From Promethearchaeota archaeon (lineage in GTDB: Archaea > Asgardarchaeota > Odinarchaeia > Odinarchaeales > JBHLKK01), in assembly GCA_048939465.1 (NCBI GenBank), contig JBHLPL010000004.1:750-32749 (forward strand): a stretch of 32,000 bases of DNA, given 5' to 3'. This document shows positions 4,041 through 7,869 of the stretch, piece by piece (positions within the stretch are counted from its first letter, which is position 1; each line of letters opens with the position of its first letter). The position numbers and the translations under genes were made by a program. The notes beneath the pieces are model-generated. The model was not told where the DNA came from. It was given only the letters and a program-made list of their open reading frames with translations, and did not search any database.

Positions 4041-4844
4041 TTGAAAAAAGACGCAGTGTGTATAGGTTGTGGTGTTGAACTCACAGACAAATATGAAAGA
4101 AAAGTTTGTGCGCAATGTCTGTTAGGCCTGAGTCTTGGAATAACTGAAGATCAATCTAAGGAGATAGTTAAACAGCTCAATGAAATACTAACAACATTTG
4201 GCTCTGATGTTGCAGCAGCTTTCAATAAAGATCCAGCAGCCAGAAGTCTAGTCGAAGTCCTAACCTCCTACCCGGGTATCCAAGCTATACTGCTTCATAG
4301 AGTTGCTCATTTCTTCTGGAACGTGGGTCTTCCTTTCATCCCGAGGTACCTTTCTAACATCACGAGGCAGATAACCGGAATCGAAATACACCCAGGGGCC
4401 AAAATAGGAAAAAACTTCTTCATAGATCATGGATCTGGTACGGTTATAGGAGAAACGGCGGAAATAGGAGATAACGTAACAATATACCAGAATGTGACAT
4501 TAGGCGGTACCAGTTTAGAGCCAGTAAAACGCCATCCAACCATAGGTAACAATGTGGTTATCGGAACAGGCGCGAAAATCCTAGGACCGATAACCATAGG
4601 GGATAACGTGAGAGTAGGAGCCAACTCAGTGGTAACTAAGGATGTCCCCCCAAACTCAGTTGTAGTGGGAGTTCCAGGTAGAATAACAAGAAGAGAAGGA
4701 AAGAAGGTTTCTAGATTAGAAATAGACTTGGAACATGGCGATCTGCCGGATCCTTTGGTTGACCTACTGTCAAAAGTAGAGAACCGAGTGGAGGATTTAG
4801 AAGAGAAAATCAGGGAGATGAAAAACGTTAGGAAGAATATATAA
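4041..4844 (+). CDS. cysE: Serine O-acetyltransferase with N-terminal Cys4 zinc-finger extension
   Basis: DPAARS...YPG...HRVAH helical domain, hexapeptide repeats ([28 protein letters not shown]), KRHPTIG and HGDLPDP motifs. Confidence 0.96.
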
Positions 4845-5757
4845 CAACATAATCGAGACCATAGGTCGCACACCGCTGGTTCGGTTGAATAGAATAACCA
4901 AGGGTTTGAATGCCCACGTTCTGGTAAAATTGGAGTCATTTAACCCCGGTGGCAGTGTTAAGGATAGAATCGGCATGTCAATGATCGACGCTGCTGAAAG
5001 GGCCGGCCTGATAAGACCAGGTGACAGAATAATTGAACCAACTTCGGGTAATACCGGGATTGCCCTGGCAATGGTAGCTGCGGCCAAGGATTATAAGCTG
5101 ACGTTAACGATGCCCGAAAGTATGTCTGTCGAAAGAAGAAAGATACTCACAGCTTTGGGCGCGGAGACGGTTCTTACTCCCGCATCTGATGGTATGAAGG
5201 GCGCTGTTGAGAAGGCTGCAGAAATCGCTAAAAAAGAAGGGAAAGCATTCATTCCGCAGCAATTCAGAAACTCAGCGAATCCTGAAATTCACAGAAAGAC
5301 TACCGCAATAGAGATACTCGAAGACACAAACGGAAAGGTTGACGCGTTCGTAGCAGGAGTAGGTACAGGAGGTACTATCACAGGAGTAGGCGAGGTTCTG
5401 AAAGACAGATTAGGGAATAGAGTTCAAATAATCGCAGTTGAGCCCAAAGATTCGCCGGTCCTGTCGGGAGGAAAACCAGGGCCACACAAGATTCAGGGCA
5501 TAGGAGCGGGATTTGTTCCAGAAGTGTTGAATACCGAAGTCATAGACCGCATAATCCAAGTCGAAGAGATCGATGCTGTCGAAACAACCAGGAAATTAGC
5601 AAGACTAGAGGGGATATTTGCGGGGATATCCTCTGGCGCTGCTGTGTGGGCAGCTCTCCAAATTGCCAAAAATGCAGCTCCGCGAAATAACATCGTAGTA
5701 GTTCTGCCTGACACTGGCGAAAGATATTTGACCACAGAATTGTTTGAGTATCCGTAG
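4837..5757 (+). CDS. cysK: Cysteine synthase A (O-acetylserine sulfhydrylase); start codon non-canonical or uncertain
   Basis: [14 protein letters not shown] (PLP lysine), [15 protein letters not shown] and HKIQGIGAG motifs. The frame continues upstream of TTG-4885 as [20 protein letters not shown] to a TGA at 4819-4821. ATA-4837 is given as a provisional start. Confidence 0.95.
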
Positions 5758-5818
5758 GTACCCACAAGATTCCGCTAAGAATCAATTTATGTTACTCTTA
5801 TTGAATTGGATGATAAGA

Positions 5819-6178
5819 ATGGAACTTCCGTGCGAGACAGCAGCGAAATATGTATTCCCCATCTTTAAATCAATTGTGGCAAAGGAACTCGTACAGAAAT
5901 ACAATTTCACCCAAACAGCGGCGGCAGAGAAGCTTGGAACGACCCAGGCTGCTATAAGCCAATATATTCATTCGAAACGTGGATACAGGAGGGACACAAA
6001 ACAGCTTAGAGAGATCCTGCCCGTGATCCAAGCTGTTGCCTGCAAAACCGCTGATCAAATAGCGGCCGAAGATCTAAAGACTGACGAGGTCATACCAAGA
6101 GTCTGCGGACTATGTATGCTAGCACGCCGGCTATCTAACATAAGCATTCGAAGAAGAATTCGCTCGACAAAGAAGTGA
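5819..6178 (+). CDS. Archaeal HTH transcriptional regulator (COG2522-like, XRE-type)
   Basis: MELPCETAAKYVFP...KELVQKYNFTQTAAAEKLGTTQAAISQYIHSKRG pattern plus a C-terminal CGLC. ATG at 5819 preferred over the ORF-track start. Confidence 0.85.
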   Translation: MELPCETAAKYVFPIFKSIVAKELVQKYNFTQTAAAEKLGTTQAAISQYIHSKRGYRRDTKQLREILPVIQAVACKTADQIAAEDLKTDEVIPRVCGLCMLARRLSNISIRRRIRSTKK

Positions 6179-6262
6179 AGAGAAGGTCCGTAATTCATCT
6201 CTTCGTAATATATTATTAGATTTCCCAGTTCAGTACTCAAATGAAGCACGTCCTTGCTTTGT

Positions 6263-7696
6263 TCAGGGAATAATATCATCTTTCTCTATTGTCCATCTGA
6301 CTCCGACAGGCGTGTCCTTAAGAGTCACCCCCATCCTTCTCAGCTTATCCCTTATCGCATCAGCTGTTTCCCAGTCCTTTCTTTTCCTTGCCTCTTCCCT
6401 CTGCTTAATCAGTTCTTCGATCTGTAGGTGCAATTCTTTCTCTTCATCCTTGAATTTCAGCCCAAAGACTTCCGAGAATCGTTTGAATATCTGTAAGGCA
6501 GTCTTTAGAGCATCTTTGTTCCTTCTTCTCTGCAGATACCCGTTTATCTCTTTCGCCAGTTCGTGAAATACTCTTAAGGCAAGTGGCGTGTTTAGATCAT
6601 CGTCCATTGCTTTGATGAATCTTTTCTCAATTGTTGCCAATTCATTCAAGAAAGCCTTCTCCGATTCCGCCTTCTTTGTGTCGGCATGTTTCATAAAGAA
6701 ATTAATCCGGCCAAATGTCTCCTTCAGCTTATCATAATTCCTCTTTGCATTAGCGGCGAATTCCTCAGTATAATTCAGTTTCTTTCGGTAATGAGCAGAG
6801 AGAAACATATATCTTACGACTTCGGGGCTGAATCTTTTGATGACGTCTTCAAGAGTTATGTAGTTCCCCAGTGATTTGCTCATTTTTCTTCCGTTGACCA
6901 AGAGATGCTCTCCGTGCATCCAATATTTGACAAAATCTTTTCCTGTGTAGGCTTCTGATTGAGCAATCTCATTCTCGTGATGGGGAAAAATCAGGTCCAC
7001 ACCGCCAGTATGTATATCCAGAGACTCTCCCAGAAATTTCATTGCAAGGGTGGAGCATTCAATGTGCCAGCCAGGTCGGACGTTCCCCCATTCGGTCTTA
7101 TAGTAAATACGTCTCCTGAGTTCTTCTGGGGTTGTTCTTTTCAATAAAGCAAAATCGCGGGGATTATCCTTGTCGTATTCATCGACGTCAACCCTTGCTC
7201 CAGCTTTTGTTTCACTTAGAATTATCTTGGAGAGTTTACCATAATCTTTGAACTTAGAAATATCAAAATAAACGCTTCCTGATTTTGTGTAAGCATATCC
7301 TTTTCTTGCCAACTCTCTGGTTATGTTAATCATATCTTGAACATGCTCTGTTGCTCGAGGGTAGTTTAGAGCTCTCTTTATGTTCAGCATATCTACGCCT
7401 TTGAAGAACTCTTTGACATATTTTTCCGTGAATTTCTTGAGAGAAAGACCTTCTTTTCCAGAGTCCCTTATTGTCTTGTCATCAATATCGGTGATGTTCA
7501 TCACATATTTCACTCTATACCCAATGTGTTCAAGGTATCTTCTAATCAAGTCTCCCATCAAGAAACTTCTGTAGTTCCCTAAATGAGGTGTAGAATAGAC
7601 CGTAGGACCGCAAGTATACATTCTGACCTCTTCTTTGCGAATTGGTTTGAATACTTCTTTCTTCTTAGTTAAGGTGTTGAAAACTCTCAAGACCAT
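6263..7696 (-). CDS. cysS: Cysteine--tRNA ligase (class I)
   Basis: YTCGPTVY...HLGN (HIGH), PGWHIECS, HTGGVDLIFPHHENE, KMSKS, and a C-terminal anticodon-binding segment ADAIRDKL...LKDT. Confidence 0.98.
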   Translation of the reverse strand: MVLRVFNTLTKKKEVFKPIRKEEVRMYTCGPTVYSTPHLGNYRSFLMGDLIRRYLEHIGYRVKYVMNITDIDDKTIRDSGKEGLSLKKFTEKYVKEFFKGVDMLNIKRALNYPRATEHVQDMINITRELARKGYAYTKSGSVYFDISKFKDYGKLSKIILSETKAGARVDVDEYDKDNPRDFALLKRTTPEELRRRIYYKTEWGNVRPGWHIECSTLAMKFLGESLDIHTGGVDLIFPHHENEIAQSEAYTGKDFVKYWMHGEHLLVNGRKMSKSLGNYITLEDVIKRFSPEVVRYMFLSAHYRKKLNYTEEFAANAKRNYDKLKETFGRINFFMKHADTKKAESEKAFLNELATIEKRFIKAMDDDLNTPLALRVFHELAKEINGYLQRRRNKDALKTALQIFKRFSEVFGLKFKDEEKELHLQIEELIKQREEARKRKDWETADAIRDKLRRMGVTLKDTPVGVRWTIEKDDIIP

Positions 7697-7710
7697 TCTC
7701 CTTCACCTGA

Positions 7711-7811
7711 AGCCGAGGAGGGGAGTTGAACCCCTTTAAACCGGTATCAGCACATCACCAATCAGCATACCAGTTTTGCAGCCGGACGCATGGCCGTTCT
7801 GCCACCTCGGC
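7711..7811 (-). tRNA. tRNA-Cys(GCA) with a 30-nt intron at position 37/38; CCA not encoded
   Basis: Minus strand: acceptor stem GCCGAGG/CCTCGGC, U73 discriminator, anticodon arm TCCGG-CTGCAA^A-CCGGT, T arm AGGGG-TTCAACT-CCCCT. Confidence 0.95.
7746..7775 (-). ncRNA. tRNA-Cys intron with box D'/C' K-loop and a second CTGA; candidate guide RNA
   Basis: AACTGGTATG-CTGA-TTG-GTGATGT-G-CTGA-T. Relaxed bulge-helix-bulge: C32-U33-G34-C35 pairs with intron GCUG with one U.U mismatch. Confidence 0.6.
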
Positions 7812-7869
7812 ATCTTTTATAGATTCGTATCCCCACTTACTAATTAAATTGATCCATATTCCGATATCA

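Follow-up and report, generated by a model that had tools for sequence, protein, structure and literature searches.

A 30-nucleotide intron in an Asgard archaeal pre-tRNA-Cys as a candidate single-K-loop guide for 2'-O-methylation of its own C39

Why a tRNA intron of only 30 nucleotides should accommodate both a K-loop and a stretch of antisense to its own anticodon arm is the question raised by a pre-tRNA-Cys(GCA) gene located at 7811-7711, on the minus strand, of the window, i.e., the whole 32,000-nucleotide stretch of DNA analyzed here. The gene comprises 101 nt, scores 42 bits against Rfam RF00005 in an alignment that places 32 inserted nt within the anticodon loop, and displays, in the minus-strand reading, a discriminator U73, a G13.A22 mismatch, and a 3' end at which CCA is not encoded. 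The intron itself (7775-7746, minus strand) occupies the canonical 37/38 position, as indicated by the sequence, by RF00005, and by the 18 other sequences with homologous introns, which are 30-36 nt long; a different placement, in which the stem strand is taken from its intron copy, fails since it gives no 7-nt anticodon loop. ARAGORN reports no tRNA at this locus when run without its intron option, because introns are then not sought, and the tRNA-Thr call returned with that option is a misreading. The host genome is rich in tRNA introns, and among the 24 tRNA genes detected the K-loop motif is found in the tRNA-Cys gene alone, even when searched in relaxed form. A second tRNA-Cys(GCA) gene, intronless, of different sequence and with CCA encoded, lies on another contig of the same assembly (G000 contig C11:6414-6487, plus strand) and is either native to the genome or the result of bin contamination; no complementarity exists between its anticodon stem and the intron guide.

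Read from 5' to 3', the intron consists of AACUGGUAUG, CUGA, UUG, GUGAUGU, G, CUGA, and U, in exact agreement with the box layout proposed in an earlier sequence-only reading of this DNA. The first four of these segments, all on the minus strand, comprise (i) an antisense, or guide, element (intron nt 1-10; 7775-7766), delineated by pairing and by compensatory changes; (ii) a box D' (CUGA, nt 11-14; 7765-7762); (iii) a variable loop, UUG in this gene (7761-7759); and (iv) a box C' (GUGAUGU; 7758-7752), the last nucleotide of which pairs with N+1. A K-loop consists of a C-G pair, a U.U pair, and two sheared G.A pairs closed by a loop in place of the canonical stem, and the corresponding pairs C11-G23, U12.U22, G13.A21, and A14.G20 can be formed by the internal D' and C' boxes, as had been suggested. 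A true K-turn was rejected, as the G.A pairs abut the terminal loop and not a 4-nt bulge, as was an H/ACA reading, for which there is no ACA-type arrangement; a permissive Rfam scan of the locus returned no sRNA family.

Directly upstream of box D', intron nt 1-9 form a duplex with AUACCGGUU that spans the 3' splice junction and comprises eight Watson-Crick pairs and one G.U pair, to which A37-U45 adds a tenth pair. The target strand defined by this pairing analysis (7747-7738, minus strand) comprises the last two intron nucleotides, A38, C39-U43, U44, and U45, so that the guide resides in the tRNA's own intron and pairs with both its own anticodon arm and intron nucleotides. Positions N+2 to N+10 are engaged with the target, and G6 (7770), the fifth nucleotide upstream of D', stands in a Watson-Crick N+5 pair opposite C39 (7744), the predicted methylated nucleotide; both the pairing and this register coincide with those described in the sequence-only reading. 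When the intron is shuffled with its composition preserved, CUGA-N3-7-RUGAUG appears in 1067 of 2,000,000 shuffles, and the motif together with an 8-bp duplex directly upstream in 5 of 2,000,000 (about 2.5 per million).

Our preferred reading, to which we assign a probability of roughly 0.58 on the grounds of sequence comparison, is that the intron serves as a half box C/D guide that directs Cm39 in cis and that arrived together with a tRNA-Cys-cysS cassette. The proposed mechanism, in which L7Ae binding, methyl transfer, and the order of events are all inferred, would comprise the following steps: (i) the single C'/D' K-loop provides the predicted L7Ae binding site; (ii) the 10-nt antisense unwinds the anticodon stem, engaging the 3' side of that stem and the last two intron nucleotides, so that C39 faces the nucleotide five positions before box D'; (iii) L7Ae, Nop5, and fibrillarin 2'-O-methylate C39 of the unspliced precursor, either in cis or on a second precursor; and (iv) the RNA refolds to the cloverleaf with a bulge-helix-bulge (BHB) motif, from which the splicing endonuclease removes the intron. 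All three proteins are encoded in the host, the fibrillarin gene adjoining that of Nop5 and two L7Ae-family proteins being present. To our knowledge, no Cm39 is known in any tRNA-Cys.

Compared to canonical archaeal box C/D sRNAs, the intron preserves a C'/D' K-loop with a short loop, an antisense ending one nucleotide before D', a duplex starting at N+2, a Watson-Crick pair at N+5, and the encoded partner proteins, but it has no second guide and is not a separate gene. A terminal K-turn of box C (RUGAUGA) and box D (CUGA) is likewise missing, no box C being found 5' of the guide, and this absence speaks against the guide reading; because of it, the intron is filed as a variant that probably works like a box C/D sRNA and not as a member of the class. 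The resulting arrangement corresponds to a natural "half-mer", a form that we know only from in vitro constructs. The closest known system is the pre-tRNA-Trp intron, which guides Cm34 and Um39 or Cm39 (PMC2584109, PMC6313347, PMC7994747) and is known from Haloferax volcanii and from Pyrococcus (sR50). Both systems comprise a 37/38 intron with antisense to its own anticodon arm plus intron nucleotides, and position 39 is a target in pre-tRNA-Trp and the predicted target in pre-tRNA-Cys; since intron nucleotides join the guide pairing, methylation of pre-tRNA-Trp precedes splicing (PMC2584109), and the same would have to hold for the tRNA-Cys intron. On the other hand, the tRNA-Trp intron spans 60-105 nt and displays full C/D and C'/D' motifs with two guides, for positions 34 and 39, whereas the tRNA-Cys intron, at 30 nt, is limited to a single K-loop and a single guide, lacks the terminal C/D, and thus has neither the two box sets nor the two guides. 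Two published studies (PMC8413462, PMC1635284) hold that archaeal guides work efficiently only with both motif pairs, so that a single K-loop would have to act as a dimer or in some other way. Intron-borne guides are described only for tRNA-Trp in the reviews consulted, including Grosjean et al. 2008, and a partial coverage of the literature disclosed no paper on single-K-loop intron guides or on tRNA-Cys.

The second CUGA of the intron, also noted in the sequence-only reading, turns out to belong to the splicing motif and not to a box D: it varies among homologs (CUGA, UUGA, UAGA, UGGA, and CAGA, i.e., YNGA) and, together with the G before it, forms a helix with C32-C35 in the anticodon loop. 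This is the BHB central helix, with GCUG, part of the second CUGA (7751-7748, minus strand), as its 3' strand and C32-C35 (7781-7778, minus strand), placed by alignment, as its 5' strand; its C32-G and C35-G pairs are invariant, G34 pairs with C or U, and most rows have U opposite U33, whereas two have A or G and one further genome (G771) also has A. The outer helix comprises two base pairs (intron A2-U24 and C3-G23) and the bulges are A36-A37-I1 and I29-I30-A38, so that the canonical archaeal arrangement of two 3-nt bulges, a 4-bp central helix with the anticodon loop, and a 37/38 position is present in relaxed form, with removal by EndA and ligase as in ordinary BHB introns. Unlike in those introns, the outer helix is just 2 bp long, the central helix contains a U.U, and about two thirds of the intron belongs to a conserved module that the BHB does not require and with which it has to compete.

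The guide and splicing folds are mutually exclusive, as they are in pre-tRNA-Trp, because the outer helix uses G23 and U24, which are also required by the K-loop, and because the guide helix takes the 3' strand of the anticodon stem. In all four homologs tested, folding prediction gives the guide fold as the minimum free energy structure, 2-7.6 kcal/mol better than cloverleaf plus BHB. Two conserved and exclusive folds, the more stable of which cannot be spliced, would also be expected of an L7Ae-dependent folding or processing checkpoint without methylation, in which the non-spliceable fold is held until the protein binds or leaves, timing splicing or protecting the precursor; L7Ae does have roles beyond sRNPs (PMC5539422). 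We regard such a checkpoint as rather unlikely, for reasons of register that are set out below with the comparative data.

Homologs were searched with a pattern anchored on the tRNA-Cys exons alone, combined with a length that demands an intron. A total of 19 homologous tRNA-Cys introns is now at hand, two of them in this Asgard genus, the others being in small DPANN-type genomes and in sediment metagenome contigs. The exon-anchored pattern finds the intron only in this genome and its genus mate among 400 genomes of the phylum, and in the metagenome contigs it retrieves ten close homologs and one divergent homolog (L186). A search based on the CysRS found a further case (L007) in a 0.5-Mb genome labelled Aenigmatarchaeota; the intron also occurs in six more small genomes of that phylum and in one genome of a further phylum, labelled Woesearchaeota. 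Among the order-mates, G003 and G004 carry an intronless tRNA-Cys at the same place before cysS. The expectation of the sequence-only reading, that Asgard tRNA-Cys introns would share the boxes and a covarying guide, is therefore borne out in part: boxes are conserved and the guide covaries across the 19 homologs, but the intron is confined to one genus among the 400 genomes and is not Asgard-wide.

Several minor observations accompany these searches. A pattern with an uninterrupted 5' exon gave no match in relatives of genome G400, because their tRNA-Cys genes carry further introns. The tRNA-Cys genes of L245, L247, L248, and L249 contain, besides the K-loop intron, extra introns at 30/31 and in the D-arm. 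Matches of a looser pattern to thermosome genes were discarded as false positives, and one neighbor gene of the metagenome contigs encodes a copper P-type ATPase. In L285 (G796:C12, ~1592-1640), a segment of ~25 nt reproduces exactly the 3' portion of the intron and the beginning of the 3' exon, with no surrounding tRNA; it could represent a gene fragment or another use of the K-loop module.

Of the 19 introns, 18 have CUGA as box D' and one has UUGA, all share R-UGAUG as box C', and the intervening loop is free in both length (3-6 nt) and sequence, a combination that, judged by sequence, is the signature of a C'/D' K-loop. The nucleotide following RUGAUG pairs with the one just upstream of D' (10:24) as G.U, A-U, or G-C, with a single G/G. 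Only two differences separate the intron from that of the genus mate, a single indel in the loop and a G-to-A substitution at the R of C', whereas identity is ~55% over the 29 nt preceding the tRNA and 83% in the CysRS; we count this contrast between intron and flank as a likely sign of selection within the genus. Sediment contigs offer only two informative variants; a population variant among them changes G18 to A and keeps the purine. Position 37 (7776) is A in this genus and G in 17 other homologs and in a sediment variant; G37 is the usual m1G37 site of tRNA-Cys, and A37 turns the outermost guide pair into A-U.

The guide helix was evaluated on a 17-row alignment, with intron nt 1-9 plus position 37 set against the last two intron nucleotides plus nt 38-45. 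Paired cells amount to 93.8%, vs 29-46% when the 3' partner is slid by 1-3 columns, and the covariation score of 0.165, vs 0.124 in shuffles, is reached by 1 of 500 shuffles. Compensatory changes include (i) A-U to G-C at N+3 in five sequences (A8-U30 to G8-C30), where both partners are intronic; (ii) U.G to C-G at N+7 in two sequences; and (iii) two double changes in L186 (U-A38 to G-C38 and C-G42 to U-A42), by which the guide follows a different anticodon stem (AUCGG/CCGAU) and a C38. The suspicion, voiced with the original claim, that the complementarity is merely a relic of a duplication at intron insertion is countered by these changes, the intron-internal one included. Independent covariation events are few, about four lineages, because most homologs are nearly identical in the guide.

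The duplex always starts at N+2 and extends over 8-10 bp, and N+5 is a Watson-Crick G-C39 pair in 18 of the 19 sequences. The exception is L186, in which one extra nucleotide before D' moves N+5 onto C38 (G-C38); this register is the main inconsistency of the guide reading, and it fits a helix that matters as a helix and not as a ruler, as would be the case for a protein-dependent checkpoint without methylation. Such a checkpoint nevertheless leaves unexplained why the duplex starts at N+2 and why the Watson-Crick pair at N+5 falls on C39 in all homologs but one. Taken comparatively, the conserved boxes, the varying loop, the covarying antisense, and the placement of N+5 on C39 lend support to the interpretation as a single-guide intron with which the sequence-only reading had begun.

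The genomic neighborhood bears on the origin of the intron and on a possible role in cis beyond the tRNA. The gene for cysteinyl-tRNA synthetase, cysS (6263-7696, minus strand; Pfam tRNA-synt_1e, E 1.3e-112), starts 14 nt after the 3' end of the tRNA and its start codon is preceded by GGUGAAGGAG (7698-7707), a GGUGA-type motif. Given this layout, tRNA-Cys and the cysS mRNA almost certainly share one transcript, the likely promoter of which is a TATA-like A/T-rich box, UUUAAUUA, recognized only by eye at 7841-7848 (minus strand), ~30-37 nt upstream of the 5' end of the tRNA. In most homologs tRNA-Cys immediately precedes a cysS of the same orientation, often with a GGUGA-type motif behind the tRNA; the loci compared for this adjacency are window 6263-7811 (minus strand), L002, L007, L091, L099, L121, L123, L134, L157, L159, L193, L244, L245, and L247-L249. 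This layout, maintained even across two CysRS types, and the short spacing with its GGUGA-type motif would suit an intron structure that regulates the co-transcribed cysS, e.g., through L7Ae or CysRS bound to the unprocessed leader tRNA near the ribosome binding site. That possibility appears highly improbable to us, as the order-mates G003 and G004 share the tRNA-cysS layout and have no intron, and the intron is intact where cysS lies upstream of tRNA-Cys (L186, G771) and where no cysS is nearby (G428).

Near-identical tRNA-Cys genes precede two types of CysRS that are mutually ~44% identical. The host CysRS is 73-75% identical to the type of L007, L121, and L134, vs 57% to that of its order-mates, whereas the flanking PALP-family and neighbor genes are 68-75% identical to those of the order-mates (window 4041-7811 vs L003 and L004), and the tRNA-Cys-cysS cassette is inverted relative to theirs. 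From these identities and the inversion, and because the module is missing from the other host introns, we infer that the resident tRNA-Cys-cysS pair was replaced by a foreign cassette that brought the intron along; the source was probably a DPANN-type lineage with mini-guides in several tRNA introns.

A cassette that moved between phyla and a guide identical in most homologs invite the simpler explanation that the intron has no job beyond splicing, its conservation reflecting the recent horizontal spread of one tRNA-Cys-cysS cassette together with splicing constraints; intron nt 2-3 and 23-28 do serve the BHB. We consider this improbable: the two CysRS types and the several different acceptor stems among the exons indicate that the set of introns is old, variation is confined to the loop, and the compensatory changes maintain a helix that rivals the BHB. 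The combined motif, moreover, arises by chance at the ~2.5 per million shuffles given above.

Guidance of C39 in cis is further favored by the occurrence of the same module elsewhere. Fibrillarin and Nop5 (these two proteins only) are encoded in five of the small intron-carrying genomes, and the K-loop motif is enriched in these genomes over a reversed-pattern control, e.g., 22 vs 0 and 13 vs 2. A tRNA-Trp(CCA) gene of G403 (L288; G403:C12, near 1456-1620) contains a 46-nt intron with one K-loop, comprising UUGA, a 6-nt loop, and GAUGAUGA; the antisense upstream of that K-loop sets N+5 on C34, so that this intron would be, by its sequence, a half-size version of the classical tRNA-Trp intron guide. 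In tRNA-Leu(CAA) genes of two genomes (L264 in G403, 1454-1572; L260 in G413, near 1440-1560), introns at 30/31 carry the D'-loop-C' module, again with N+5 on C34. C34 of tRNA-Trp and of tRNA-Leu(CAA) are both box C/D targets (PMC7994747). A constant module with a changing antisense that obeys the N+5 rule on known sites provides the strongest indirect argument for a guide in tRNA-Cys, and it is a regularity that an L7Ae-dependent checkpoint without methylation leaves unexplained.

A guide could also act in trans, the excised intron, linear or circular, directing modification of another RNA, such as rRNA, since circularized tRNA introns and sRNAs are able to persist in archaea (PMC7994747). 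This seems barely credible, given that the best complement of the guide is the precursor itself, including two intron nucleotides, that matches to the guide across the genome number 596 vs ~959 expected at random, i.e., chance level or below, and that the host's second tRNA-Cys is not complementary.

If the reading as a guide for C39 is true, the consequences extend beyond this gene. Why archaea keep many short tRNA introns is an old question, and a built-in guide would give some of them a function; a natural guide with a single kink would challenge the two-motif-pair requirement for archaeal box C/D RNPs, and it would constitute the smallest known RNA-guided modification device, useful for engineering. 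The putative transfer would, in addition, show a functional RNA being carried from one archaeal phylum to another along with a tRNA-synthetase gene pair. More tentatively, and at somewhat less than even odds, a K-loop and one antisense totalling ~25 nt may represent a self-sufficient natural guide in pre-tRNA introns, for which many short archaeal introns would be kept and which would travel between phyla in tRNA-synthetase cassettes, here from a DPANN-type lineage to an Asgard host whose box C/D proteins would use it.

Strict patterns for canonical two-guide box C/D sRNAs returned none in the host genome and none in the controls, a blank that we set on the negative side of the guide reading but do not take as evidence of absence. 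A canonical-looking dual-guide sRNA with the same K-loop shape is found in another genome (L261; G428:C14, ~1460-1560), arranged as box C, a 12-nt guide, CUGA, AGG, GUGAUGA, a 12-nt guide, and CUGA; a second box C stands downstream of it and suggests tandem sRNA genes. Finally, a class II tRNA with a long variable arm and the loop CUUGA... occurs in two genomes (L252 in G406, 1432-1586; L274 in G403, 1434-1581), and its intron of 68-74 nt displays a K-loop between mutually complementary arms.
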